NCBI GenBank assembly: GCA_951406725.2
Contig: OX597816.1
Coordinates: 85,746,001-85,810,000, forward strand
Reading direction: 5' to 3'
DNA: 64,000 nucleotides
Origin: Octopus vulgaris
Taxonomy: Eukaryota
Shown: one piece after another, positions 1 to 57,590 of the stretch
How the letters are laid out: every line of letters starts with the position of its first letter
How positions within the stretch are numbered: the first letter of the stretch is position 1
Program-made: the position numbers and the translations under genes
The notes under the pieces: generated by a model
Database searches by the model: none
What the model saw: only the letters and a program-made list of their open reading frames with translations
Told to the model about the DNA's origin: nothing

Positions 1-458
1 CGGAGTGGATGGGTCTTTCAATGTATAGATTGTCTCTTTGTGCTTGGCTCAGTGTGATGAAGCCAATCTTGGCTTAGGAAACGTTCAAGGAGACCAGCTG
101 GAACAGTCTCAAGTATTGTCAGATTTTCTCTTCATGTGATCAGTCTGTTCGGCTTTTGATAAGATATTAGTAAAGGCGGCATACACCACGGAGAAACCGT
201 CGTCATACAAAGTTCATTATGCAGAATATTCTCAACTCTCTAACGGTATATAGTAATAACATTGTTTTTTTGATCTATAGTAATCGCCTGTCATCTATCA
301 CCATGTGGTAAATACGTTAAATGTTTTCCTTATTTTGAAGAACCTCTCAGACATGAAATCTTATTTAAAATAACTTCCATTATAAATAGATGTCGCCAAT
401 CAGATTATTGATAGGATACATTGCAGTCAATAACAATAACGCTATAACAAATATAAGA

Positions 459-815
459 AGGTGGCTAGCTGGCAGAAACGTTAGCACGCCTTTTATCCTT
501 TCGGGGTCGATTGAATAAGTACCAGTTACGCACTGGGGTCGATATAATCGACTTAATCCGTTTGTGTGTTCTTGTTTGTCCCCTCTGTGTGTATACCCTT
601 GTGGGTACTAAAGAAATTAGAAACGTTAGCACACGGGTTGAAAAGCTTAGCGGTTTATCGTCTGTCTATACGTTCTGAGTTCAAATTCCGTCGAGGTCGC
701 ATTTACCTTTTGTCCTTTCTGGGTCAATAAATTAAGTACCAGTTGCGTTGGGGTTGATCTAATCGACTGGTCCCCCTCCTCAAAAATATCGGTCCCCTGT
801 GCCTAGAGTAGAAAA
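459..815 (+). mobile_element. tRNA-derived SINE interrupted by a nested 5'-truncated SINE (488-618)
   Basis: Head ggtggctagctggcagaaacgttagcac, B-box-like gagttcaaattcc and core ggggtcgat...aagtaccagtt. The 14-bp direct repeat agaaacgttagcac at 474-487 and 619-632 flanks the nested copy. A related copy lies at about 54945-55145. Confidence 0.8.
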
Positions 816-846
816 GAAAAGAATATAACAAATACCAGGACAAGAC

Positions 847-878
<32 letters not shown>

Positions 879-2545: not shown

Positions 2546-2729
2546 TAATAATTAAAATCAAACTAAAGTATAATATAATCGTAACATAACAAAAGAAAAA
2601 ATAGCAATTGGTATAAAATTGCATTAATGACTTGAACTTGAATAAGTGGTTTCACATGAATGGGAATAAATTAAAAGTAAAATTAGCGTGCAGAAATGGA
2701 ATAGTCCAGATGGATAATAAAAAATTAAA

Positions 2730-2800
2730 TTAAAGGAAAGACAATTGTCTATAAAGTATACAACGTAGAGAAAACAGAAGATTTGAACACATCGAGCAAA
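2730..2800 (+). pseudogene. Left half of a decayed L1/Tx1-type ORF1 that was the insertion target
   Basis: Translates KGKTIVYKVYNVEK, which aligns with EKKRIIYKTYDTT in the LINE ORF1 and ENKTVTYRTQDKS in the short-element ORF1. Confidence 0.55.
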
Positions 2801-2928
2801 TTTACCCACGTGTGTTGTTATCTGTGATTAGAAGTTGAAATTTTGTTGTGTAAAGTGATTAATATCGCGCGAGGCGTTTGCCTCCACGTTTGGAAACCTT
2901 CAGAAGAAGGTGAATTGACCCTCTAGTC

Positions 2929-3108
2929 ATGGCGACTTACGCGGGGGTCACGGGAAAGAAAAATAATGATTCGTCGATAATCGTGAAGGATGTTTTCTTT
3001 GAGAAAAGTAAAATCAAAGAATATGAAAAGCTATTCAAAAGGGAGGGTGATAGCGTGAAGCTAATCCCCCCGCGAAAGCAAAAGAGGACAAAGAAAACAA
3101 GACTGTAA
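2929..3108 (+). CDS. N-terminal segment of ORF1 (59 aa, MATYAGVTGKK...KREGDSVKLIPP), overlapping the main ORF1 frame
   Basis: ATG in gtcATGG context. TYAGVTGKK..IVKDVFFE..KREG aligns with KFAEVAGKK..IKKIYIE..KKEG in the LINE ORF1 N-terminus. Confidence 0.7.
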   Translation: MATYAGVTGKKNNDSSIIVKDVFFEKSKIKEYEKLFKREGDSVKLIPPRKQKRTKKTRL

Positions 3109-4328
3109 CGTATAGAACCCAGGACAAAAGTACAAAGAAACTGGCAAGAGTGGAGATAGCAGAGATCGAAAAATGTCTGGGAGACATAATGGATAAATCG
3201 ACCTACGTGAGTAGAGGAAAAAAATTTGGTACGGTGGAGGTGAGATGTGCAACGGAAGAAATTGCAGCCTCACTGGCTACCACTGTTCTAAGAGCGGAAA
3301 CATTTATAATGTGGCCCTCATACAAGGGAAGAAGAGGGGTCCGGGTTAAAATCCCGAATATACCCCCAGAAGTAAAAACAGAATGGCTGGCAACAGCTAT
3401 TCTAGGAGCAGCAGAAGAGGAAGTGGAGGTGGAATCCTTTAAGGAGTCCAACGCAGTAAATTGGAGAGGATATGGGGTAGAACTGTGTTTGATGGCCACA
3501 AAAGAGGACATTGAAAGGTTCCCCTATAGAATAGAAATCGAAGACGAGAAAACCCTCAGTGTAATTGTAGAGGGAAGAAAGCCAAACTGCTACTTGTGCG
3601 GGACAAGGGGGCACATTAAAAAAGAGTGCCCGTTATATGAATTCGTGGCGGAGTATGAGAAGGAAATTGAAGAAAAGAAGAATACGGTAAATGAAAGAGA
3701 AAACATAGAAAAGGAGACAAAACAACAAGAGAAAGGAAATAATAAGTCAACGAAGGAAAAAGAAATAAAAGAAAAGAAAGAAATAGAACCAAAACAGAGT
3801 CAGGAAAAGAAAAAGGAAAAAGAAACAACAGGAAAAAAACAAGAGAGAGAACAGAACCAAACGAAAAGAAAAGACGGCACACAAAAGGAAAAAGAAAAGG
3901 AACATAAAACACGAGAGAAAGAGAGAACAGACAAAGAACCAAAAAGACAAGAGAAGGAAGAAGAAAGAAAAGAAGGCAAAAAGAGAGAAAGAGAGAAACA
4001 AAGAGAGGAGAACAAGGAAGAAGTAAGCCCGAAAAGAAAAACGAGAGAAAACGTAGGACGGAAACAAGATTACTACAAGTTAATAACCTTCCATTTCAGC
4101 CCCGAAATGAAGGAATTGACATGTAGTATGGAGGGACATGTGTGGGTCAACAGGATGACTGATCAGTGGCAGGAGACTGCTCTGATCCCCGAAGAAAGAG
4201 TCGCTGAGTTCCTCAGAGCAGCTGGAGAGAGTGTAAATTTTTACACGGGTGTTCGAGTGAAAGAGCGGCTGCCTGAGGGCTCAGTGATTGACTTTAGAGA
4301 CTTGAAAAGTATTATGGAATACGTGTGA
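3054..4328 (+). CDS. LINE ORF1-like nucleic acid-binding protein: RRM-like region, CX2CX4HX4C knuckle, K/E-rich linker, unknown C-terminal domain
   Basis: Frame is open from 3054 (ORF track starts at GTG 3150). Contains CYLCGTRGHIKKEC. SRGKKFGTVEVR and VIVEGRKPNC match NRGKRYGTVEVR and VFVDGRKPRC in the LINE ORF1. Confidence 0.85.
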   Translation, partial: REANPPAKAKEDKENKTVTYRTQDKSTKKLARVEIAEIEKCLGDIMDKSTYVSRGKKFGTVEVRCATEEIAASLATTVLRAETFIMWPSYKGRRGVRVKIPNIPPEVKTEWLATAILGAAEEEVEVESFKESNAVNWRGYGVELCLMATKEDIERFPYRIEIEDEKTLSVIVEGRKPNCYLCGTRGHIKKECPLYEFVAEYEKEIEEKKNTVNERENIEKETKQQEKGNNKSTKEKEIKEKKEIEPKQSQEKKKEKETTGKKQEREQNQTKRKDGTQKEKEKEHKTREKERTDKEPKRQEKEEERKEGKKREREKQREENKEEVSPKRKTRENVGRKQDYYKLITFHFSPEMKELTCSMEGHVWVNRMTDQWQETALIPEERVAEFLRAAGESVNFYTGVRVKERLPEGSVIDFRDLKSIMEYV

Positions 4329-4581
4329 GATTGTGAGAGGAGAGAGAAGAAAGAAGAGAAAAAGAAAAAAAAAATTGTGAACTATATGTGACGAAAATGT
4401 AACCTCTCGATTCCGGGGATCGAGTGGGCATTTGCATCTCATTGTAAATATTCTTTCATTTGTCATTTTTATTTTAATTTTTCCCTTCTTGTCATTTCGC
4501 TTTCTTATTTTAAGTTCCCCGATTGTATTGTCCCCTCTATGTTCGCCCCTTGTGGGTAGTAATAAAATCACATCGAGGAAA

Positions 4582-6348
4582 TTTACCCACGTGTGTTGTT
4601 ATCTGTGATTAGACGTTGAAATTTTGTTGTGTAAAGTGATTAATATCGCGCGAGGCGTTTGCCTCCACGTTTGGAAACCTTCCGAAGAAGGTGAATTGAC
4701 CCTCTAGTCATGGCGACTTACGCGGGGGTCACGGGAAAGAAAAATAATGATTCGGCAATAATCGTGAAGGATGTTTTCTTTGAGAAGAGTAAACTCAAAG
4801 AATACGAAAAGCTATTCAAAAGGGAGGGTGATAGCGTGAAGCTAATCCCCCCGCGAAAGCAAAAGAGGACAAAGAAAACAAAACTGTAACGTATAGAACC
4901 CAGGACAAAAGTACAAAGAAACTGGCAAGAGTGGAGATAGCAGAGATCGAAAAATGTCTGGGAGACATAATGGATAAATCGACCTACGTGAGTAGAGGAA
5001 AAAAATTTGGTACGGTGGAGGTGAGATGTGCAACGGAAGAAATTGCAGCCTCACTGGCTACCACTGTTCTAAGAGCGGAAACATTTATAATGTGGCCCTC
5101 ATACAAGGGAAGAAGAGGGGTCCGGGTAAAATCCCGAATATACCCCCAGAAGTAAAAACAGAATGGCTGGCAACAGCTATTCTAGGAGCAGCAGAAGAGG
5201 AAGTGGAGGTGGAATCCTTTAAGGAGTCCAACGCAGTAAATTGGAGAGGATATGGGGTAGAACTGTGTTTGATGGCCACAAAAGAGGACATTGAAAGGTT
5301 CCCCTATAGAATAGAAATCGAAGACGAGAAAACCCTCAGTGTAATTGTAGAGGGAAGAAAGCCAAACTGCTACTTGTGCGGGACAAGGGGGCACATTAAA
5401 AAAGAGTGCCCGTTATACGAATTCATAGCGGAGTATGAGAAGGAACTTGAAGAAAAGAAGAATACGGTAAATGAAAAAGAAAACATAGAAAAGGAGACAA
5501 AACAACAAGAGAAAGGAAATAATAAGTCAACGAAGGAAAAAGAAATAAAAGAAAAGAAAGAAATAGAACCAAAACAGAGTCAGGAAAAGAAAAAGGAAAA
5601 AGAAACAACAGGAAAAAACAAGAGAGAGAACAGAACCAAACGAAAAGAAAAGACGGCACACAAAAGGAAAAAGAAAAGGAACATAAAACACGAGAGAAAG
5701 AGAGAACAGACAAAGAACCAAAAAGACAAGAGAAGGAAGAAGAAAGAAAAGAAGGCAAAAAGAGAGAAAGAGAGAAACAAAGAGAGGAGAACAAGGAAGA
5801 AGTAAGCCCGAAAAGAAAAACGAGAGAAAACGTAGGACGGAAACAAGATTACTACAAGTTAATAACCTTCCATTTCAGCCCCGAAATGAAGGAATTGACA
5901 TGTAGTATGGAGGGACATGTGTGGGTCAACAGGATGACTGATCAGTGGCAGGAGACTGCTCTGATCCCCGAAGAAAGAGTCGCTGAGTTCCTCAGAGCAG
6001 CTGGAGAGAGTGTAATTTTTTACACGGGTGTTCGAGTGAAAGAGCGGCTGCCTGAGGGCTCAGTGATTGACTTTAGAGACTTGAAAAGTATTATGGAATA
6101 CGTGTGAGATTGTGAGAGGAGAGAGAAGAAAGAAGAGAAAAAAGAAAAAAAAATTGTGAACTATATGTGACGAAAATGTAACCTCTCGATTCCGGGGATC
6201 GAGTGGGCATTTGCATCTCATTGTAAATATTCTTTCATTTGTCATTTTTATTTTAATTTTTTCCCTTCTTGTCATTTCGCTTTCTTATTTTAAGTTCCCC
6301 GATTGTATTGTCCCCTCTATGTTCGCCCCTTGTGGGTAGTAATAAAAT
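4582..6348 (+). mobile_element. ORF1-only element, copy 2 (1-nt frameshifts)
   Basis: Near-identical to copy 1. ORF pieces at 4931-5155, 5026-5805 and 5886-6107 are broken at short base runs. Confidence 0.9.
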
Positions 6349-6361
6349 CAAATGGCGGAAA

Positions 6362-8111
6362 TCAATTTGCGTGTTGTTATCTGTGATTAGAAGTTGAAAT
6401 TTTGTTGTGTAAAGTGATTAATATCGCGCGAGGCATTTGCCTCCACGTTTGGAAACCTTCCGAAGAAGGTGAATTGACCCTCTAGTCATGGCGACTTACG
6501 CGGGGGTCACGGGAAAGAAAATAATGATTCGGCAATAATCGTGAAGGATGTTTTCTTTGAGAAGAGTAAACTCAAAGAATACGAAAAGCTATTCAAAAGG
6601 GAGGGTGATAGCGTGAAGCTAATCCCCCCGCGAAAGCAAAAGAGGACAAAGAAAACAAAACTGTAACGTATAGAACCCAGGACAAAAGTACAAAGAAACT
6701 GGCAAGAGTGGAGATAGCAGAGATCGAAAAATGTCTGGGAGACATAATGGATAAATCGACCTACGTGAGTAGAGGAAAAAAATTTGGTACGGTGGAGGTG
6801 AGATGTGCAACGGAAGAAATTGCAGCCTCACTGGCTACCACTGTTCTAAGAGCGGAAACATTTATAATGTGGCCCTCATACAAGGGAAGAAGAGGGGTCC
6901 GGGTTAAAATCCCGAATATACCCCCAGAAGTAAAAACAGAATGGCTGGCAACAGCTATTCTAGGAGCAGCAGAAGAGGAAGTGGAGGTGGAATCCTTTAA
7001 GGAGTCCAACGCAGTAAATTGGAGAGGATATGGGGTAGAACTGTGTTTGATGGCCACAAAAGAGGACATTGAAAGGTTCCCCTATAGAATAGAAATCGAA
7101 GACGAGAAAACCCTCAGTGTAATTGTAGAGGGAAGAAAGCCAAACTGCTACTTGTGCGGGACAAGGGGGCACATTAAAAAAGAGTGCCCGTTATACGAAT
7201 TCGTAGCGGAGTGCGAGCAGGAACTCGAAAAGAAGAATACAGTAAATGAAAAAGAAAACATAGAAAAGGAAACAAAACAACAAGAGAAAGGAAATAATAA
7301 GTCAACGAAGGAAAAAGAAATAAAAGAAAAGAAAGAAATAGAACCAAAACAGAGTCAGGAAAAGAAAAAGGAAAAAGAAACAACAGGAAAAAAACAAGAG
7401 AGAGACAGAATCAAACGAAAAGAAAAGACGGCACACAAAAGGAAAAAGAAAAGGAACATAAAACACGAGAGAAAGAACCAAAAAGACAAGAGAAGGAAGG
7501 AGAAAGAAAAGAAGGCAAAAAGAGAGAAAGAGAGAAACAAAGAGAGGAGAACAAGGAAGAAATAAGCCCGAAAAGAAAAACGAGGGAAAACGTAGGACGG
7601 AAACAAGATCACGGCTTCTACAAGTTAGTAACCTTCCATTTCTGCCCTGAAATGAAAGAATTGACAAGTAGTACGGAGGGACATATATGGGTCGACAGGA
7701 TGACCGATCAGTGGCAGGAGACTGCTCTAATCCCCGAAGAAAGAGTCGCTGAGTTCCTCAGAGCTGCCGGTGAGAGTGTAACATTTTACACGAGTGTTCG
7801 AGTGAAAGAGCGGCTGCCTGAGGGCTCAGTGATAGACTTTAGAGAATTGAAAACTATCATGGAATATGTATAGAAATGTGAGAGAGAGAGAAGAAAGAAG
7901 TGAAAAAAGAAAATATTGTGAAATATATGTGACGAAAATGTAACCTCTCGATTCCGGGGATCGAGTGGGCATTTACATCTCATTGTAAATATTCTTTCAT
8001 ATGTCATTTTTTACTTTTATTTTTTCCTTTTCTTGTCATTCGCTTTCTTATTTTAAGTTCCCCGATTGTATTGTCCCCTCTATGTTCGCCCCTTGTGGGT
8101 AATAATAAAAT
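6362..8111 (+). mobile_element. ORF1-only element, copy 3
   Basis: Same architecture. ORFs at 6708-7565 and 7652-7873. Diverged 3' half and a different 5' leader (tcaatttgc). Confidence 0.9.
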
Positions 8112-8125
8112 CACATCGGCGGAAA

Positions 8126-9873
8126 TTTACCCACGTGTGTTGTTATCTGTGATTAGACGTTGAAATTTTGTTGTGTAAAGTGATTAATATCGCGCGAGGC
8201 ATTTGCCTCCACGTTTGGAAACCTTCCGAAGAAGGTGAATTGACCCTCTAGTCATGGCGACTTACGCGGGGGTCACGGGAAAGAATAATAATGATTCGGC
8301 AATAATCGTGAAGGATGTTTTCTTTGAGAAGAGTAAACTCAAAGAATATGAAAAACTATTCAAAAGGGAGGGTGATAGCGTGAAGCTAATCCCCCCGCGA
8401 AAGCAAAAGAGGACAAAGAAAACAAGACTGTAACATATAGAACCCAAGACAAAGATACAAAGAAACTGGCAAGAGTGGAGATAGCAGAAATCGAAAAATG
8501 TCTGGGAGACATAATGGGGAAATCGACCTACGTGAGTAGAGGAAAGAAATTTGGTACGGTGGAGGTGAGATGTGCAACGGAAGAAATTGCAGCCTCACTG
8601 GCTACCACTGTACTAAGAGCGGAAACATTTATAATGTGGCCCTCATACAAGGGAAGAAGAGGGGTCCGGGTTAAAATCCCGAATATACCCCCAGAAGTAA
8701 AAACAGAATGGCTGGCAACAGCTATTCTAGGAGCAGCAGAAGAGGAAGTGGAGGTGGAATCCTTTAAGGAGTCCAACGTGATAAACTGGAGAGGATATGG
8801 GGTGGAACTGTGTTTGATGGCCACAAAAGAGGACATTGAAAGGTTCCCCTACAGAATAGAAATTGAAGATGAGAAAACCCTCAGTGTAATTGTAGAGGGA
8901 AGAAAGCCAAACTGCTACTTGTGCGGGACAAGGGGGCACATTAAAAAAGAGTGCCCGTTATACGAATTCGTAGCGGAGTGCGAGCAGGAACTCGAAAAGA
9001 AGAATACGGTAAATGAAAAAGAAAACATAGAAAAGGAAACAAAACAACAAGAGAAAGGAAATAATAAGTCAATGAAGGAAAAAGAAATAAAAGAAAAGAA
9101 AGAAATAGAACCAAAACAGAGTCAGGAAAAGAAAAAGGAAAAAGAAACAACAGGAAAAAAACAAGAGAGAGATCAGAACCAAACGAAAAGAAAAGACGGC
9201 ACACAAAAAGAAAAAGAAAAGGAACATAAAACACGAGAGAAAGATAGAACAGACAAAGAACCAAAAAGACAAAGAAGAAGGAAGGAAAAGAAAAGAAGGC
9301 AAAAAGAGAGAAAGAGAGAAACAAAGAGAGGAGAACAAGGAAGAAATAAGCCCGAAAAGAAAAACGAGGGAAAACGTAGGACGGAAACAAGATCACGGCT
9401 TCTACAAGTTAGTAACCTTCCATTTCTGCCCTGAAATGAAAGAATTGACAAGTAGTACGGAGGGACATGTGTGGGTCAACAGGATGACTGATCAGTGGCA
9501 GGAGACTGCTCTGATCCCCGAAGAAAGAGTCGCTGAGTTCCTCAGAGCTGCCGGGTGTTCGAATGAAAGAGCGGCTGCCTGAGGGCTCAGTGATTGACTT
9601 TAGAGACTTGAAAGGTATTATGGAATATGTATAGAAATGTGAGAAGAGAGAGAAGAAAGAAGAGAAAAAAGAAAATATTGTGAAATATATGTGACGAAAA
9701 TGTAACCTCTCGATTCCGGGGATCGAGTGGGCATTTACATCTCATTGTAAATATTCTTTCATATGTCATTTTTTACTTTTATTTTTTCCTTTTCTTGTCA
9801 TTTGCTTTCTTATTTTAAGTTCCCCGATTGTATTGTCCCCTCTATGTTCGCCCCTTGTGGGTAATAATAAAAT
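8126..9873 (+). mobile_element. ORF1-only element, copy 4
   Basis: Same architecture. ORF at 8475-9434 and a deletion of about 20 nt near 9553. Confidence 0.9.
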
Positions 9874-10099
9874 CACATGGAGGAAATCAATTTTTTGCGT
9901 TATTAGTAAGTTGATATATATTTTGCTCTCGTACTATTATCTCTGTTATTATATACTGTTGGTCTACCTGTTTTGTCTATTGTTGTCTAACTGACGAAGT
10001 CAGCCTTCGCGCGAAGACTTCGCGTTGGTGTTCCCCCTCCGTGGGGGAAAACTACAATTAATTTGGATTTACCAAAGGCTTGTTAAAGCCATTTGTTCA

Positions 10100-11119
10100 A
10101 GATGGAGTCCCCCATCTCTTATTCGCCCGTGACGAGCGAGGATGAATACCCGGCGTTGTCGCCAAGAAAAAAAGAGGCGTTGTCGCCGAAGAAAAAAGTG
10201 GCGGCGTCGCCCAAGAAAATGGAAAAACCAGTACCAGCATCAACTCCAGCAAAAAAATTCGCTGAAGTGGCTGGGAAAAAGATTAAAAAAATATATATAG
10301 AAAATTTGGAAAAATTTGCAGACTGTGTAAAAAAAGAAGGGCACAGAAGTGACTGTGGCCACAAACATACAAAAACATGACGATATAGAAAAAAAAAGAA
10401 TAATATATAAAACTTACGACACAACGACAAAAATGATCCAAAAAATCGAAGAAAAAAAAATAGAGTTTTGTCTAAAACCTTTTATGGATAAAATAACGTA
10501 TATAAACAGAGGAAAAAGATACGGCACAGTGGAGGTGCGTTTTACTATGGAGGAGATAGCGAAAAAACTATCGATGGAGCCAATCAAAGCAGAAAACATT
10601 GTCTTACAACCATTGTATAAAGGAAAAAGGACGTCGAAAATTTCAATGAACAACATACCGCCAGAGGAAGATGCAGAATGTCTGGTGGCAGCAGTGATGG
10701 TAGGCCTGGAGGAAAAAATAAACATCCTCCAGGCCACAGTGGAGGAAGAGGAGTTTTGGAAAGGGCAGAAAATAGTGATAGCCATTCAGGCGGAGGTGCA
10801 AACACTGGAAGAAATTCCAGAAACGGTAAAGATTAGTGAAGACGAGAAAATAACAGTTTTCGTGGATGGCAGGAAGCCGAGGTGCTTCGGCTGCGGCAAG
10901 AAGGGTCATGTAAGGGCGGAATGCCAACCCCAACCCAAACCGCAGGAAGCACCTAAGCCAAGAGAAAAAGAAGATAATGTGTCACCAGAAGCAGCGTCGG
11001 ACGGCCCAGAAGGGAAGACTGAAGGTGTGAGGTGGTGACAGCAGAACCAGCGGCGGAGGAAAAAAAGAGCGAGGAAAAGATAACTGCGGAGGGGTGGGCA
11101 AAAATTACCGGAACTTAAT
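10100..11119 (+). CDS. LINE ORF1 with zinc knuckle, frameshifted near 10340 and 11030
   Basis: ORF pieces 10093-10380 (SPKK repeats) and 10349-11038. Contains CFGCGKKGHVRAEC. An E-rich tail continues in another frame to TAA near 11119. Confidence 0.8.
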
Positions 11120-11147
11120 TACCGAACCACTGATATAAAGGTAAGTA

Positions 11148-14100
11148 ATGGATTACATTTATGTTGGTTGTTTGAATGTGCGCGGCCTGGGAGCAGGCTG
11201 GAAGCAAGGTCGCTTCCTGCATGATATCAGGTCGCGTAATTTAGATGTTATTGTTGCTACAGAAACCCGGTTAGAGGGGCCAAGAGGTCTACTCCCGCTG
11301 TTTGACGGCTACGAGAGTTTTTTCTCTCCTGGCAGTCCTACAGGCGGGAGTGGGGTGTTGGTCCTATTAAAAGAAACCGGGTTTCTGAGAAAAAGTTAAT
11401 TTTTGCAGATCCAGAAGGTAGGCTGGTCGTCATGGATTTGACGTTCAGTAATGGTAAAGTTATCAGACTGGTTGCAATTTACGCACCCAACCATACAGGG
11501 CAAAGTGATTATTTTCGTGAACTAGAAAACTTTCTTGGTACTTCGCATTCATTAGTGGTGCTAGGAGACTTTAACACAATTTGCAAAGCGGATGTAGATT
11601 GTGTTGGCTCGCGTCCAGATAGAAAAGGCAACAGTGGCTTCATGGAACTGCTAAGCCGCTTTGAGCTAGCAGATCCTTATAGGCTGGAATTTCCGAACGC
11701 TCCATTGTGGACATGGTCAAACAGCGACGGATCTTCCAGGTCATATTTAGATAGAATACTAATTAGAAAAGTAGACAGTAAAATAGCTAAGTGTCCACAG
11801 TTTTACCCGATCAGCTACAGTGATCATAAAATGGTCACTTGTAAGCTTGACATAGATAAGGTTAAAAATAGAGGATCCGGTTACTGGAAACTTAATACGT
11901 CCCTTTTGGCGATTAAGGAGTACAAAGACCGGATTAGGAATATAATTCAGAGGGCACTATCTGGTACCATCATTAATAACAAATGGTGGTACGCCCTCAA
12001 ACGAGCCATCAAGTTTGAGTCTATTAGATATAGCATAGGAGTAGTGGCTAGAGAGGCTAGAAGGGAAACTACTCTAGTTAAGGAATTAGAGGAAGCCATG
12101 AAAACTGGCTCTGCGGCTCAGGTGGCGTCCAAGAGACTGGTGTTAAACCAGCACCTCGAGGCCAAACACATGGGCTGCATTGTCAGGGCTAGAATCCGCC
12201 ATATGGGATGTGAAGGAATCAACGCCGTGAGATGGGCCCGAGTGGTGGAAGCTCAGCATGGTAACGATGCCACGATTCGATCTTTGACGAACCAACAAGG
12301 TGAGTTGATAAACGAACCCGAGGAGATGTGTGAGGCCTTTCAGGAGCACTTCGCTCAGCTTTTCGGTGAGTGCGGCGGACTGGATAGGAGGAGGGCCTTT
12401 ACGGACCTACTCGACGGGCTGCCGCGCTTATCGGGGCGAGATGCGGAGGGCTGTGAAGGGCCAATCACGCCTGAGGAGGTGGTTGAGGCAATGGCGGACT
12501 GCGGCGTGGGCAAGGCGCCGGGTTTGGATGGTCTACCCTATGAGTTATATAAGAGTATGCCAGACTTGTTCGGGCACCTACTGGCGGAGGTCTATGCGAA
12601 CTGGCAGCAGAACGGGCTTATACCCAGATCTGTGCGCCGGGGAGTAGTGACTCTCGTCAGAAAGGACCCGAGCAAGGGGGAGTGCATTGATAATTTCAGG
12701 CCCATCACTCTGCTAAACACAGAGTTGAAGATTTTGGCCAAAGTGTTATCGAAAAGATTGGCGCGTGTCGCGGATGGTCTGATCGGAGAGGCACAGACAT
12801 GTGCCGTTCCGGGCAGATCCATTCAGGATAATCTCCATCTAATGCGGTACACTATAGAGGGGTTTAATAGTGATTCTGGCAAGGGTGGGGCACTGGTCCA
12901 TTTAGACCAATCTAAAGCTTTTGATAGGGTCGACCATCGTTACCTGGTATCTGCCCTGGCACAGTTCGGGCTGAGCCTTGGCTTCCTCAGGTGGATTATC
13001 CAAATTTATGATAACATCGACTCGGTAGTTCGGGTGAACGGCTTCTTGTCGAAGCCGTTCAAAATCAAACGCTCGGTTCGTCAAGGGTGTCCGCTCTCCC
13101 CGCTTTTGTACGTGATGGCTCTTGAGCCATTACTGCGAAAACTGAGCGGCATCCCGAGACAGCCAGGTAATGGAAAATCAGTGTCAGCGTACGCGGATGA
13201 CATCACCATCATCGTAACCGAAATGGACCACCTATGTAAAGTAGGCAAGGCCATAGAGGTTTACGAGACGGTGACAGGAGCAAAAGTTAATCGCGAAAAG
13301 TCAGTCGGCTTGCAACTCGGCACCTGGAGAGGCAAGTCGATGCCTCCTGACAGCGTCGTGGGACGTTGGACGGAGGGTCCGATTAAACTGCTAGGGGTCT
13401 GGTTCGGTCCAGACCTCCAAATAGAGAAGAATTGGGGCGAGGTAACGAGCAAGGTGGCTGCAGTAGCCAAGACCTGGTCTTGGCGGTGGCTATCCCTGAA
13501 AGGGAGGGCGGAGGTGGCCAATGTGTTTATCGCATCGGTTATCACCTACCGCCTTTCCGTCGTTCCTTGCCCTGATTCGTGGTTGATCAAGTTGGAAAGA
13601 CAGCTCTTCTACTTCTTGTGGAAGGGCGGGAAACCACTTGTGAAACGCTCTACTTGCTGTCGACAACCGTTAAAGGGTGGGCTAGTGATGCCGTGGCTGA
13701 TGATGCGCAGACATGCGCTGAGGTTAAGACATCTGTGGCTCTACCTGGATGGTGAACGGGTGTGGTCTTCGCTAGCAAAACTGATGTTTCCCAAGTTCAC
13801 TAGTTTCGGTGGATGGGAAACCTGGCTGAATCGTAGATCGAAACTTGGTACTTGGTACACGGAGTGTCGCAAGGCTCTCCTGCTATTCCGTCGCTCGGGC
13901 AACGCCTGCGGTGGGGGTTCCACCACATTCTTCTATAGAGGGTTGGTAGAGGCGGAATGTGAAGATACCTTGGGGAAACCCTAGGTCTCGACGATAATCA
14001 GCTGGCCAGTCTGTTCCGACGTACGTTCAAGCCGAGGACACTGGACAACTTCCAGAAGTCTCTGGCATGGCAATGCTACAGAGGAGCTCTACCTGTTCGG

Positions 14101-14541
14101 GATAAACTCGCAAGGCACGGTGGCCAAGACAGTCCGATATGTCCAAGATGCGGGCGGGATAGGGAAACCGTCCCGCACGCTATTGTTCATTGTCCGGACG
14201 TGTCTGAGGTGTGGGTTTATGCCGAACAGCTGTTGTCAGGTACACGAAGAGTACAGCTGTCGACTGAGTCGATTACAAAAATTGACCCACCGGATTTCCT
14301 CGTGAATGAAGGTAAGTTTCGTTTTCTCGTTGTAGTAGCAATTGCGAAAGAGGTGATATGGAAGACGAGAATGAAAGGTTTACAGTCAGGCAAGTTCATC
14401 TCCGGCCCTGGTTTGATGAATTATTTCATCTTTCACCTGAAAAGGAAGATAGGGCTGGAGAGAATATGCCTGACTAGGAGAGTGTATGAAGAACGATGGA
14501 AGGATGTAGCACGAAAGTTGCGAGTGAAAGATACAACATAA
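11148..14541 (+). CDS. LINE ORF2: APE endonuclease, reverse transcriptase and C-terminal CCHC; two frameshifts (about 11372 and 13978)
   Basis: Endonuclease motifs LNVRGL, ATET, IYAPN, LGDFN, YLDRI, SDH. RT motifs KAPGLDG, FRPITLLN, LDQSKAFDRV, RQGCPLSP, AYADD. C-terminal CPRC-x7-H-x4-C (CPRCGRDRETVPHAIVHC) near 14140-14195. Confidence 0.93.
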
Positions 14542-14785
14542 ATGTAATACCAAGCGCAACCAAAAGTATCAGTGGGGAGGCGGGGCTCGTGGGGTCCGAG
14601 CTAAACCCGCACCCACTCCACCCGTAATGTCTTCCGGTCTGTCCCATCATTCGATTTCTGTCCATTTATTGTAATTCATGAAAATTTTTAAATTCGATTT
14701 ATTGTAAAAACCCATTCGTGTGTCTGACCCCATCATCAGATTATATTGTCCCATCTATGTTCGCCCCTTGTGGGTAATAATAAAA

Positions 14786-15095
14786 CAACATGGAGGAAAG
14801 CACCTTCGAAAAGTGTCTTGGTGTGACTATGAAAGATATCTAATCAGAGGCGGTAAATTCGCCACAATAGAAGCAAGGATCGAGTCAACGGAGCGTGCAA
14901 GGGAGTACTCGACTCGAAGTTGCAAAGTGGAAATATTTTATTTTTACCTTTATATCTGGGACATAGGATTTCCCGGAAAAAAATTTAAAATGCCCTCCCC
15001 CCAGAAGTAGAGGTAGGCTGGATTGTAGTCACACTTCTATGCAAGAAGGAGGACAAGATACAAATGATTGAAATTACAAGAGACGGGCTAAAAAT
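14786..15095 (+). pseudogene. Right half of the decayed ORF1 target
   Basis: MEESTFEKCLG / IRGGKFATIEARIESTERA / PPEVEVGWIVVTLL align in order with EIAEIEKCLG / SRGKKFGTVEVRCATEEIA / PPEVKTEWLATAIL. Confidence 0.75.
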
Positions 15096-16025: not shown

Positions 16026-16243
16026 ATTAAACAATTAAGAAATTAAAATTAAAAATTCAGAAGTTAAAAATTTAAGATATTGGTAAGTCAAATTAGATTA
16101 TTAGAGATTACCTAAGGCGTTTTCTGTATATGTATTGTCTAGTGATTTAGATTACATTTAGATAATCTCTAAAACCTAATTTGACGTTCTAATGCTTAAT
16201 TTTTTAACTTTTCAATTTTCATTTTTAATTTCTTAATTGTTTT
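16026..16243. repeat. AT-rich fold-back nested inside the larger inverted repeat
   Basis: aaacaattaagaaattaaaa pairs with ttttaatttcttaattgttt, and gtcaaattag..tagagatta pairs with taatctcta..ctaatttgac. Confidence 0.7.
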
Positions 16244-16296
16244 TATCACATCTGCTTTACACGCAGAAGGTCGTGAGTTCGATCCTCGCTAGAACC
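16243..16296 (+). pseudogene. 5'-truncated tRNA-Val(TAC)
   Basis: ttatcacatctgc-tttacac-gcagaaggtcgtgagttcgatcctcgctagaacc has an intact anticodon arm (TAC) and T arm and is followed by a T-run. The 5' acceptor strand and most of the D arm are missing. Confidence 0.75.
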
Positions 16297-16540
16297 TTCG
16301 GTTTTTTAAAAAATCCCCTTCTATCCGGCACTTGTCACCATGATAGATCGTTAGCCACTACACACACTTTTTTCCTCCCTTGTTTTTTTTCTGTGTCCCT
16401 TTCTAAAAGAGCGTAGGCTCGAAACGTAAAAGACTTTTTCTATTCCTGAGCGTTATACTGATACATCTGTTTGCTTTGTACACCACCTGTCTTCATCTTT
16501 TGTTTTTTTCGTAAACTCTCCCTATATATAAACTTATATT

Positions 16541-18296: not shown

Positions 18297-18333
18297 ACAT
18301 TATTGGTGAATTGAAGAACAGAAATCGTTTTAT

Positions 18334-18421
18334 TTCATTCTACACGTGTTTCGAAAGGCACAAATTACCAAAATCCGATTGAATAATGAGACCACATTGT
18401 GTCTTTCTCTTCAGGAAGAAA
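18334..18421 (-). ncRNA. Hammerhead ribozyme, inverted pLTR copy
   Basis: Reverse complement of the motif at 19560-19646, with the core intact. Confidence 0.75.
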
Positions 18422-18539
18422 ATAGGAAATCCGTTGGAAAAACAAAAACAGAACAGAGGCGGAGCAAAAGTGACGTAGTGGAAAATAGAGTAGTAAGCGG
18501 CTGCAGGTCTCGGAACGAATATAGTGACAGGAACGCAGT

Positions 18540-18966
18540 TCTAATTTCAGAAACTAATCCTAGCAGAATAAGATTCACGTCGGCGAACTCCAAGATCAAA
18601 AACGCCGTCTACCAATGCAAGGTTTACACGGACTCAGATGTCTTCACTTATGTAGGGGCCTCATCCTCAAGATTGTCTTTGCGTGTCTCCAACCATTACG
18701 CAACTTTTCGGGACATGAACAAGCGCCAGACCACGGGACTCAGTAAGCTAATATGGCGACTGAAGGATACGAACTTAAGCTACAGGCTGGAATGGTCAAT
18801 TTTGTCGGTGGCCCTCCCATTTGATAGGGGCAGAAGGCAGTGCAACCTTTGTGTCTCCGAACTCTTCCATATTTTGTTTGCCAGAGGCCGGATGGTAAAC
18901 GGGCTTTTACAGTCGGCTTTTCGATGCCCCCATTGGCGGCGTTACACTTATCTGGCTTTTAAATAG
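18540..18966 (+). pseudogene. GIY-YIG endonuclease domain of a Penelope-like element
   Basis: AVYQCKV...TYVGASS...RVSNH...GLSKLIW...WSIL...CNLCVSELFHI. Confidence 0.85.
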
Positions 18967-19559
18967 CGTTTATAAATAATACCGGCACCCATAGCCCTTG
19001 GTAACAAATTCTGAAATAGCCTTTAAGATATCTACGATTAACCACTGCAAGGGGAATTACTCCTGTAAGACAAACGGGGCTTGGTTTTTTCACAGCGGGG
19101 GGTTTCCTTGACAAGGCAGGCTTAGATGAACACACACACATAAAATATAAAATATATATATATTTTTTTTTTCTGCCACCCAACGGCTCTCGCGGCAGTA
19201 GCCACTGACAGCCGAACGCTCAAACGCACACACGTACACAAAAAATGTTTTCTACCCCTACGCCAACACACACATATATAGAACAGTATACACACACACA
19301 CGTCTCTAAGTAGATTTTTTCTCGCCCCTTATAAAACATCCAATATTCCTTAAATAGTCAGAACTTTATTCTCGGTCACAAAGAACACCCACACACCCTC
19401 ACCCACATGATTGACCGATGCCTGACCCGTTAAATTCTTCAGCCACCGGTTCTCAACATACACTGATAAACAGTTTCGCCATGGGCTCTTAGGAGCATAG
19501 TTCGATTTGTTTTTGCTCCGCCTCTGTTCTGTTTTTGTTTTTCCAACGGATTTCCTATT

Positions 19560-19646
19560 TTCTTCCTGAAGAGAAAGACACAATGTGGTCCCATTATTCA
19601 ATCGGATTTTGGTAATTTGTGCCTTTCGAAACACGTGTAGAATGAA
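19560..19646 (+). ncRNA. Type I hammerhead ribozyme in the pLTR
   Basis: ttcttc-CTGAAGA-gaaagacacaa...ttgtgcctttc-GAAA-cacgtg-TA-gaatgaa, followed by AATAAA. Predicted cleavage after 19639. Confidence 0.8.
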
Positions 19647-19863
19647 ATAAAACGATTTCTGTTCAATCTGCGTTCAGCTCCATTTCTTCAATTCACCAAT
19701 AATGTTTTAATTTCAATTATCCGCACCAACGCACGGTTGCAACACCATATGGTTGTACCTCCAACCGTGCTGTTTACTGCTGTGATTTTTGCTACTAAGG
19801 TATCGGTTAAACCTTTGATTAATCTACTACAAGATTATTCATCTTTCAATTTCACATAATATA

Positions 19864-52550: not shown

Positions 52551-53045
52551 TATATAGAAAATAGTAAAAAGTGAAAAAACTACCGAAGGCTTGTTTTAAA
52601 AGGTTAAAAAATATATACTTGAGTCATTATGTCAGAAGAATGTTATAAATTTTTTTTCATACAGTGACATAGTTTTTGAGGAAATTACCGGTTTCGTGTT
52701 AACTTTTCAAATTTCTCAAAACATTGTTATGATTTCGTTAAGAAGTGTAAAGTAGAGTTCCAGGTAAGGGGAGGTAATAAGTGATTTCTGTCGTTTAAGT
52801 GAAATAAGTGAAATCACTTATTACCTCCCCTTACCTGAAACTCTGCTTTACACTTCTTAACAAAATCACAACAATGTTTTGAGAAATTTGAAAAGTTAGC
52901 ACGAAACCGATAATTTCTTCAAAAACTATGTCACTGTATGAAAAGAATTTATAACATTCTTCTGACATAATGACTCAAATATATATTTTTTAACCTTTAA
53001 AACAAGCCTTCGGTAGTTTTTTCACTTTTTACTATTTTCTATATA
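52551..53045. repeat. Large palindrome (about 237-bp arms, 21-nt spacer) with a degenerate minimal hammerhead in each arm
   Basis: Arms 52551-52788 and 52810-53045. gaaat-TTGAAAA-gt taac ac-GAAA-ccgg-TA-atttc occurs at 52681-52715 (-), with a variant at 52883-52916 (+). Confidence 0.9.
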
Positions 53046-53126: not shown

Positions 53127-53309
53127 ACCGATGATGGTGTGTTTACATCCGCGTCACTTAGCGGTTCGGCATAAGAGACCGATAAAATAAGTACTGGGCT
53201 TACAAAAGAATAAGTCCCGGGGACGATTTGCTCGATTAAAGGCGGTGCTCCAGCATGGCCGCAGTCAAATGACAGAAACAAGTAAAAGAATAAAATATAT
53301 ATATATATT

Positions 53310-54195: not shown

Positions 54196-56344
54196 ATATA
54201 TACATGATAAGCATAAATGTAAAACATATTTATATAGGTTATATATCTTGTGATATGTGTAAATAAATATTTTAAAGAGAACATGAAACATACGGTGCAA
54301 GCACCTTAATATATGTGATAGGGCGAACCTTCGTCTGAGGCTCCAACATCTCTAAACATCTACCATTGCTTTGAATTTCTTATATTATTGCTGCTCAGTT
54401 TCAATACTGGATCGTAGAGGACAAGGAGACCGTGTCCTGGTATCACCTGATGTGGTCTTCTTCGTATCTTACAAATATTCCTATGTACAATTAGCGAAGC
54501 CTTAATCAATAAACGAAGCATCAGATCATTTCTATGCTCGTAGAAAAGACCTATTGTATTTTTGTATTTTTGCCCAAAGGTTGCGGGCAAGAATATATTA
54601 CTTTTGTAGTGTTTTGAGTACAAGTGGTGTATTTCTGATCCAGCACTTACATTGGCTGACTGCAGTTCCTAAATTTTATTCTTTCTACCTTTCTGCTGTT
54701 TTTTTTTTGTCCTCTACCAAATGACTCTTACATTCGTATATGTAGCCACTAAAAGTTCTGTACTGCATCACCGATCCCGTTATCTTTCTCTTTCCACGTG
54801 CAATAAGAGTTTACTACTTTGAGATTGACTTGTTATCTTCGAGGGTCATGAGAATTAGCATGGCTATTGAGAACTCTGTTGACCAGTCCTTTGCCGGAGA
54901 GGCAAATGTGAATCAAGGATTTCCTAATATAGTGCAACACAGAAGGCGGTAAGCTAGCAAAATCGTTAGCACGCCGGGAAAAGTGCTTTGACTACATTTC
55001 TCCCATCTTTACGCTCTGAGTTCAATTCCACCGAGGTCAAATCTGCTCTTCATTATTTCGGGGTCGATAAAATATATACCAGTTGAACACTCGGACCTTA
55101 CACCGTACCCTGAAATTCTGGCCCCGTGCTAAGATTTGAAACAAATATATAACAAAACAGCACTGTAGATAGACTTTCTATGTATAATTTGTATTTATCT
55201 TTCGTATCGCTCTAAACTTCAACGACAAGGGATACATAAATGTCCGTCTAGTTCCTTTCGCGTGTACACTGTCAATCTATACCTCCGCGACATCGTTCCT
55301 TAAATGCTACAACAATTGTACTCATAAGACACGTCCGTTGTTTTGAGAAGCTGATATATGTAATATTCCTACATTCAAAATTTTAAAATATTTACTAGAA
55401 CATCTACTATGGATTCAGCACCAACACGCTATTTCTGCTAACATCTAGTTCTGATGACTAGAAAATTCGTAAAAGTAGGGAGTTATACGATATTAATAAC
55501 ATAACAATAATCCTTTCTTGTTTAGATGTAAGGGAAACAATTTTGCTGGAGGGGCTAGTCAATTATATCGATTCCATTAGTCAATTGGTACTTACTCCAT
55601 TCACTCTGAAAAGATGAAAGGCAAAGTTCACAGCGGCGAAATTTGAAGCTAGAATGTATAGACGGAGGAAATAACGTTTAGCATTTTGTCCAACGTGTTT
55701 ACGAAACTATCCAATGACTAAATTATCTAGCCCATTAAGCAAGGGCTTAAACCTATCATTTCTTGGTCAAAACACACACATACACATACACAAAACTACA
55801 CACTCACACGACATGCACACGTACACACAAACATGTACACACATATCTAAATATATACCTACATATGTATGTATTATTTTCCTATCATGTATTCTACACC
55901 ACCAAGCTAGACGGAGCCTTTCATCGCAAGGAAGAACAACATGAATTTTCCGCTAAACTATTTCAATGGTTAACATTACTAATACAGTTCCCATAAAATT
56001 TTCATGTGTTGTTTCAATATAATTTCACAAACCATCACAGATTTCATATTACCTTTAAAATAATGTTATGGTTATGACTCATTTGGCGTCACAAATCGAT
56101 CGCTTAATAGGGTGACGGAAGGGTCATATTCGTAAAATATCACTGTCACTGCTAAATTGCCCACGCCACCAATTTCCAATCAAAAACAATCAACTAGACA
56201 GCAGTTTATTTAAAATGATCGAGAGCAGCGTTTAATTAGAAAATGCAGTACAATGTATCAGATAAAGTATTTGGCATACCAATTGTACCGAATGATAATT
56301 TATGCCTAACAAATATCGCTTGGAGTTTTATAGCAGAATATAAT

Positions 56345-57036: not shown

Positions 57037-57590
57037 CGGACCTCTTTCAGTTTCCGTCTACAAAATCCATTGAGAAGGATTTGGTCGGTTCGAAGTTATA
57101 GTAAAAGACACTTTCCACAGGAGCCACGTAGTGGGACTGAACCTGACACTATATGGTCGGTAACTAAGATACTTACCGCTCAAACACTCCTTTTATTCTT
57201 TTACTTCTTTCAGTCAATCGACTGCAGTCATGCTTGGGCACCACGTTTTAGGCGAAGAAATCGACCCTACAATTTATTCTTTGTACGTCTGGTGCTTATT
57301 CTATCAGAATAGTTTGCTGAACAGCTAAGTTACGGTGATATAAACACACCAAGATCAATTATCTCGCGATGAGGGAGGATAAAGACAAAGACGCGCGCGC
57401 ACACACACACACTGATATATATGTATATATACGACGGGCTTCATTCAGTTTCCGTTTACGTAATCCACTCACAAGGCTTTGTTCGGCCCCCGGCTATAGT
57501 AGAAGACACTTGCCCAAGGTGTCATGCAGTGAGACTGTACCTAGAACCGTGTGGTTGAGAAACAAGCTTTCTTCCGATAAAGCCACACCT
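57033..57590 (-). mobile_element. Cluster of tRNA-derived SINE fragments
   Basis: acgacgg..tttcagtttccgt..aaatccactcacaaggcttt..agaagacacttgcccaaggtg occurs twice. The same family is on the + strand at about 62270-62405, 63877-63970 and 40760-40875. Confidence 0.7.

Follow-up and report, generated by a model that had tools for sequence, protein, structure and literature searches.

A poly(A)-less 3′ tail is shared by an octopus SINE, an L1-group LINE and ORF1-only elements

Few SINE/LINE pairs with a common 3′ tail involve the L1 clade. The count in PMC3472496 is three of 58 pairs, in line with an earlier sequence-only reading of the DNA described here, which had called such sharing less common in the L1 group. 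The L1-clade pairs tabulated in PMC3747384 (Table 1) come from maize/sorghum and Chlamydomonas alone, with neither a Tx1 partner nor a mollusc in that table. In these pairs (ZmSINE2 and ZmSINE3 with LINE1-1_ZM, SINEX-3_CR with L1-1_CR), a tRNA-type SINE ends in about 45-50 nt of an L1-clade 3′ end, the LINE end is far more conserved than the rest, and a hairpin has been proposed (PMC3472496, PMC3747384). From these three plant and algal SINEs, Ohshima proposed that L1-clade elements originally recognized their 3′ ends stringently, a state that mammals and most plants have since lost; in the stringent L1 lineage of monocots, divergence is 0.144 over the last 45 nt compared to 0.570 overall (PMC3472496). 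The octopus locus analyzed here, in a 64-kb stretch of Octopus vulgaris DNA that we call the window, is built in a similar way. Unlike the plant and algal pairs, however, it has an animal host, a Tx1-like, site-preferring LINE lineage, a 3′ end without poly(A) or a simple repeat, and an additional tier of ORF1-only elements with the same tail. Compensatory changes were shown for the plant and algal pairs; in the octopus tail such changes are putative.

Several other described systems share parts of this arrangement. Crocodilian SINEU elements are likewise Tx1-linked SINEs that insert in a mobile element and stack in tandem around the TSD, with different Tx1 families serving different SINE groups (PMC4494074). 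They differ in having an snRNA head and poly(A), and as described in that paper no LINE carries the SINEU-1 3′ terminus, so that the link is target preference; in octopus it is the tail that forms the link, and a SINE head serves as landing site. Tx1 in Tx1D, Tx1-9_AMi in Harbinger, and Kibi/Koshi resemble the octopus LINE in their endonuclease-RT-zinc finger ORF2 and, as target-preferring Tx1 elements, in fixed-motif insertion inside another repeat and in forming arrays (PMC4494074). Unlike these named elements, the octopus array appears to split the remains of an older ORF1 from its own lineage, and its membership of the Tx1 clade is putative. The ORF1-only elements are comparable to HAL1 (half-L1), which is also non-autonomous and encodes ORF1 alone (PMC5753468), but they share a tail without poly(A) and are not a deletion product of the adjacent LINE. 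Finally, Deu/Nin and other mollusc SINEs resemble the octopus SINE in their plan of tRNA-type head (putative in octopus), conserved body and exchangeable tails; the bivalve partners named in these sources are CR1, CR1-Zenon, L2 and Nimb, none of them L1-group (PMC5804259, PMC4758252, PMC11481361). Our literature search returned no description of a Tx1 or L1 tail on a SINE from octopus; repeat databases may already contain the pair. A term search of the supplement to the O. vulgaris repeat paper likewise returned no discussion of a SINE-LINE partner (PMC13282606).

Table 1. Features of the SINEs, the ORF1-only array and the LINE, in window coordinates.
Feature	Positions	Strand	Remarks
5′ head of outer (host) SINE	456..487	+	matches SINE head at 54941-54975; A-box-like motif 462-472
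Left copy of 14-bp duplication	474..487	+	may reach 490 via 3-nt microhomology
Inner SINE: 3′ body part and tail A	488..618	+	81% to 706-768; 5′-truncated or internally deleted
Shared ~45-nt 3′ tail of SINE (tail A)	575..617	+	blastn, shuffles; without poly(A)
Right copy of 14-bp duplication, at tail-to-head junction	619..632	+	recurs in paralogous contigs
Rest of outer SINE, ending in tail B	619..825	+	B-box-like motif 679-688; five-base loop near 795-800
Upstream piece of older ORF1 relic	2729..2788	+	aligns to LINE ORF1 residues 19-41
ORF1-only copy 1	2787..4569	+	zf-CCHC ORF1; tail 4523-4568
ORF1-only copy 2	4570..6349	+	99% to copy 1; tail 6303-6348
ORF1-only copy 3	6350..8111	+	mosaic, 5′ half of copy-1/2 type, 3′ half of copy-4 type; tail 8066-8111
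ORF1-only copy 4	8112..9873	+	tail 9828-9873
L1-group (Tx1-like) LINE	9874..14785	+	ORF1 10102-11038, ORF2 11148-14541
Shared 3′ tail of LINE	14739..14785	+	96% over 47 nt to ORF1-only tail; without poly(A)
Downstream piece of older ORF1 relic	14784..15078	+	tblastn E 8e-6; starts with CACAT-type junction motif
Decayed SINE copy with third tail type (tail C)	54941..55146	+	4-bp stem, 5-nt loop

By its ORF2 similarity, the LINE is an L1-group element: the best solved relative is human L1 ORF2p (211 bits, E 3e-61, residues 6-786), compared to 90 bits (E 1e-24) for R2, in a narrow set of 12 solved-structure hits without any RTE, CR1 or L2 protein. ORF2 has an apurinic-type endonuclease (PF03372, E 1.6e-6), a reverse transcriptase (RT; PF00078, E 1.7e-31) and a C-terminal zinc finger (zf-RVT; PF13966, E 1.1e-9), and the element likely belongs to the Tx1 clade. 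None of the 120 ORF2 homologues listed by the homologue, cluster and Atlas searches bears a clade name, and the sole species name among them, at 49% identity, is Argonauta hians. In O. vulgaris, the LINEs with recent activity include a single L1-group entry, L1-Tx1 (13 families; PMC13282606 Table 1). The copy in the window has three frame breaks, one in ORF1 near 10340-10375 and two in ORF2 near 11370 and 13975. No other LINE RT remnants were found within the 64 kb, and no RNA data were listed as carrying the LINE.

Upstream of the LINE, four ORF1-only elements of 1.76-1.78 kb lie head to tail (2787-9873) and are 94.7-99.0% identical. Like HAL1, they code for a zinc-knuckle ORF1 alone. Tx1 ORF1 carries a CCHC zinc knuckle; the ORF1-only protein matches PF00098 (zinc knuckle, E 7.5e-5), and the LINE ORF1 gave no Pfam hit, though the two proteins are 37% identical. 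Outside the tail, the DNA of the two element types shares just two weak patches (E 0.025 and 0.088). We rejected an origin of the ORF1-only elements by deletion from the adjacent LINE on these two grounds, the divergence of the ORF1 proteins and the lack of strong DNA similarity beyond the tail; a different parent LINE is possible. Copy 3 resembles copies 1-2 in its 5′ half and copy 4 in its 3′ half, and at its very start (~25 nt) it is similar to the 5′ end of the LINE; template switching or unequal crossing-over may explain this. By eye, the first ATG of each of the four copies (2929, 4710, 6488 and 8254) does not lie in the frame of the long ORF1, which may indicate a defect of the master copy, a downstream start or a frameshift. 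As a lead only, the Atlas ties the ORF1-only protein to CCHC/ZCCHC3-like clusters; a literature search found no paper covering both ZCCHC3 and Tx1.

The SINE at the start of the window consists of an inner copy nested in the head of an outer copy. It is short, non-coding, highly repeated and dispersed, with further copies in the window at 54941-55146 and 55540-55686. It resembles octopus SINEs and may be of the OK/OR1 type, and its body may correspond to the Deu/Nin domain. The octopus SINEs OK, OR1 and OR2 were reportedly described by Ohshima and Okada in 1994. The A- and B-box-like motifs in the table were located with loose patterns; in the SINE head, ARAGORN found no tRNA gene and Rfam no tRNA match at E≤10, with two chance-level hits.

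The sequence-only reading had proposed that the end of the inner SINE, placed at 575..618, matches the tails of the LINE and the ORF1-only elements. Alignment bears out the match and its location, and moves its end by one base, to 617. Using blastn within the window, SINE 572-617 aligned with all four ORF1-only tails (38 of 47 columns, E 1.7e-5) and SINE 576-611 with the LINE tail at 14746-14780 (29 of 36, E 0.002). When SINE 489-618 was shuffled with its dinucleotides preserved, the observed local score was reached in 0 of 1000 shuffles against a whole ORF1-only copy, in 0 of 1000 against the 3′ UTR of either element type, and in 1 of 1000 against the LINE over its full 4.9 kb. When the SINE was cut back to 575-605, which excludes its A-rich end, the shuffles that did as well numbered 0 of 1000 for the ORF1-only element and 2 of 1000 for the LINE. 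Additionally, in each of the six elements (the SINE, the four ORF1-only copies and the LINE) the match lies at the very 3′ terminus, a position that the shuffle test does not count, and none of the six ends in poly(A). The 3′ ends of the ORF1-only elements and the LINE are identical at 45 of 47 nt, and the similarity of the SINE to these LINE-type elements begins at the same place as their identity to each other. In the shuffle test, the SINE tail is nearer to the ORF1-only tail than to that of the LINE (score 45 compared to 35), and this copy differs from both at 612-613. Taken together, these comparisons show that three otherwise dissimilar kinds of element have a homologous tail, confined to the last 45-47 nt.

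We then compared this copy with its family by aligning the contigs of four public runs to window positions 430-850 (421 nt). The family is very abundant, with 83,556-166,383 contigs per run over these 421 nt. At 591, 594 and 595, its majority letters are T, G and C (77%, 84% and 87% of contig depth in run X5), and the majority points in the same direction in all four runs. At these positions and at 608, the majority departs from this copy and agrees with the LINE-type tail; because of the majority letters at the first three positions, the family and the LINE-type elements do not differ anywhere in the hairpin. Compared to ORF1-only copy 1, the family majority matches at 37 of 43 positions and this copy at 34 of 43, a hand count that rests on the best 40 of 113 variant rows and may miss further changes. 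The ORF1-only tail attracts 675 contigs, and among the loose ends in front of it are SINE body in at least 45 contigs and LINE-type 3′ UTR in at least 24 (best 6 of 52 rows). A scan for the tail pattern gave no match in metagenome contigs and none in viral contigs, where host DNA is not expected.

The same SINE body also carries other tails. In run X5, loose ends occur behind 553 and 555 in 905 and 806 contigs, and within the window the bodies at 619-825 and 54941-55146 lead into at least two other tails, in which the five-base loop is kept and the stem is different. Tails B and C keep the layout and loop of tail A, which suggests kinship. Normal SINE copies have body sequence upstream of 488 (920 contigs in X5); the short 5′ side of the inner SINE is therefore private to this copy, whether by truncation or by deletion.

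Because the ORF1-only elements and the LINE are strongly alike in their last 47 nt alone, the tail probably acts as a recognition signal of the stringent type, conserved by selection in cis. That three dissimilar elements keep this terminal segment, in a pattern resembling that of the stringent monocot L1 lineage (PMC3472496), also makes it look functional. An L1-group RT would then need the tail for reverse transcription, and the arrangement suggests that in these relatives of human L1, RNA cargo is likely picked by its tail rather than by poly(A).

The small terminal hairpin, previously read as a kept structure with accc in the SINE stem and gccc in the LINE-type stem, is not established as the conserved fold. 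The accc stem is a private variant of this copy, as is the five-pair stem, and the local hairpin energy is -6.7 kcal/mol here compared to -4.5 kcal/mol in LINE-type tails. We rejected the accc/gccc difference as covariation because the majority letters of four runs trace it to change or decay in a single copy. In the five LINE-type tails, 12-13 of 15 folds prefer a longer stem in which GGG pairs with an upstream C run around a loop of ~15 nt (the count of 13 includes a near tie of 0.25 vs 0.22), and two favor the short hairpin (c1 and c2, longest context). The two structures are mutually exclusive, and two of three folds of the SINE copy favor the short hairpin. Only one of nine tail segments folds better than its shuffles (z -2.75), the other eight having z above -1.1. 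Counting pairs in the long stem gave 83% of 48 cells paired, a value reached in 23 of 500 shuffles, with eight related window rows, which are too few; the double changes in this count come from the decayed tail B and C rows or from this SINE copy. The common polymorphisms in the 3′ arm, 606 T/C and 608 G/A, both fit the long stem, and 606 also fits the short hairpin (read by hand). The loose-end consensus of the other tails keeps the CTTGT loop with a GGC/GCC stem instead of CCC/GGG, a double change that would support the short hairpin if those tails are homologous; the tail C copy in the window folds as such a GGC/GCC hairpin. Thermodynamic folding, in short, singles out no one structure for the tail.

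The LINE-type elements and the SINE land at different sites. A CACAT-type motif of 13-14 nt, with small variations, stands at all six junctions of the array, and beyond the LINE-type tail in other contigs (14 contigs, agreement 0.49) the consensus starts with TCAACAT. Contig depth, which is not copy number, is 41,368 at 9879-9884, through the motif, and 2,856 at 9891-9896. Because the motif occurs at every array junction and behind tails elsewhere, we conclude that the LINE and ORF1-only tier prefers a site, in qualitative agreement with the target-sequence preference of the Tx1 type.

In translation, the two flanks of the array read as successive parts of an older ORF1, the 5′ flank weakly: for 2729-2788, 26 of 2000 shuffles were as good against the LINE ORF1, and 654 of 2000 against the ORF1-only protein, which is not significant. 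The five-element array thus appears to split an ORF1 relic of the same lineage. The site of the split appears to carry a motif similar to the 5′ ends of the elements themselves, which would make the family self-targeting.

As had been noted from the sequence, the inner SINE sits in another SINE head between direct repeats of 14 bp and lacks the CACAT motif. The repeat is exact, 3 nt of microhomology (488-490) mark the 5′ junction, and the site shares no motif with the LINE junctions. Non-simple 14-mers whose copies start within 300 nt of each other number six in the 64 kb, this one included, so its position at the SINE end outweighs its length as evidence. The 618/619 junction is bridged by three pieces with at least 31 letters on each side, among 32 listed as the longest of 430,908, a biased sample that gives no frequency. 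One is this locus, and two align without gaps at 27 differences in 136 letters and 21 in 109, and are thus other copies. The tail-to-head 3′ junction is therefore not private but recurs at the same base in paralogous copies, as this sample partly shows. Beyond the tail of SINE-type contigs, the consensus of 69 contigs (agreement 0.51) is not head sequence, so many SINE copies do not lie at the head site. In a single observation, SINE 612-616 (AGAAA) equals the first five bases of the landing site, an identity that arises from the two differences to the LINE-type tails at 612-613.

We favor, with moderate confidence, a model in which the poly(A)-less tail is the signal for the RT of this lineage and a putative sister Tx1-like family, rather than the LINE in the window, is the likely carrier of the SINE. 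Tx1-like families would share the 3′ signal and tail core while cutting different motifs. The window LINE family and its ORF1-only passengers would stack at the CACAT-type site, and the SINE, having captured the tail, would be mobilized by the Tx1-like group, with the sister family inserting this copy at the SINE-head site. Here target-primed reverse transcription may have inserted a partial SINE cDNA, with the 3-nt microhomology on its 5′ side and a duplication of 14-17 bp, and a resemblance between the last tail bases and the first bases of the landing site (AGAAA) would help priming. A more far-reaching reading, which we offer only tentatively, is that this is a Tx1-type animal lineage with plant-like stringent recognition of a folded tail without poly(A), in which each family retains the core of the tail and retunes its last few bases to its own landing site, and the abundant SINE, having taken up the tail, both rides one family and offers that family a landing site in the SINE head. 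The sequence-only reading had proposed three tiers using one RT, with either relaxed targeting or a sister LINE as the true partner. Of these, the sister family is preferred because the head junction recurs at one base and LINE-type tails precede a different motif; a single RT with relaxed targeting, as it was worded, is not supported.

Other origins of the SINE copy deserve consideration. The LINE family in the window might itself move the SINE and the ORF1-only elements, with looser targeting of the SINE. In its favor, tail identity to this very lineage is high, the SINE duplication of 14 bp is similar in length to the motif of 13-14 nt found where array elements join, and crocodilian SINEU-1 and -2, though assigned to Tx1-Mar, show target preferences of 23% and 13%, much weaker than the 90% of SINEU-3 (PMC4494074). 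However, the SINE site lacks the LINE junction motif yet recurs at one base, and the SINE tail is both closer to the ORF1-only tail than to the LINE and different from both at 612-613, so we regard a single RT as rather unlikely. Also unlikely, in our estimate, is a single origin of a dimeric SINE that then multiplied in dimeric form, with a later loss, between short repeats, of part of the first monomer of this copy. The tail would still be homologous, and the 14-bp repeat would be inherited architecture and uninformative on targeting. An amplified dimer would also give a recurrent junction with ungapped paralogous contigs, and the microhomology at 488-490 suits a deletion as well as a truncation. 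Against it, majority differences number ~17 in 619-800 and 8 in 488-618 (best 40 of 113 rows), which leans toward an older host without amounting to a test, and tandem copies of SINEU-3 were reread as sequential insertions (PMC4494074).

The partner comparison covered the L1-group LINE of the window; O. vulgaris also has active LINEs of other kinds, among them RTE, CR1 and Dong-R4 (PMC13282606 Table 1). At some earlier time the tail could have passed between SINE and LINE, in whichever direction, and a LINE of another clade, such as these, could be or have been the main mover of the SINE. Tails B and C on the same body fit this proposal, as does the frequency of tail exchange in SINEs (PMC5786205, PMC11481361), and the Deu/Nin SINEs tabulated in PMC3747384 (Table 1) pair with CR1, L2 or Crack LINEs. 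We nevertheless find it quite improbable: the tail A family still keeps its 37 of 43 matches to young LINE-type tails, and the similar layout and loop of tails B and C suggest kinship with tail A. Chance similarity in low-complexity sequence is hardly credible. The match is short (36-47 nt) and one shuffle in 1000 equaled it against the whole LINE, but no shuffle did so in three other tests, the match is terminal in every element, and the family majority fits better than this copy; these results, with the contigs on the ORF1-only tail, led us to reject it.

If the preferred model with a sister Tx1-like family holds, an animal Tx1-like LINE, ORF1-only elements and a major SINE with one poly(A)-less tail would extend the stringent state to animals. 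The probable driver of a large SINE family would then also be identified, in a genome with a SINE content of ~11.6% (PMC13282606). At 45 nt, the tail lends itself to mutation and exchange in tests with an L1-type RT, for whose human relative solved structures exist.

The window as a whole is AT-rich with many microsatellites. By eye, a tRNA-like stretch followed by repeat-like sequence lies at 16230-16520, where ARAGORN called no gene. At 18316-19664, inverted repeats of 154 nt (99%) flank an open frame of 218 aa that looks GIY-YIG-like by eye and has no Pfam hit; this is probably the end of a Penelope-like element. The long near-perfect palindrome at 52560-53040 (core arms 52648-52788 and 52810-52950, 94%) probably represents a DNA transposon of the foldback or MITE type. 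Besides the SINE, another family of short dispersed repeats occurs at 2430-2538, 53186-53294 and 57192-57301, with 94% identity between the first two copies; its tail is unrelated to that of the SINE and ends in short A-rich repeats.
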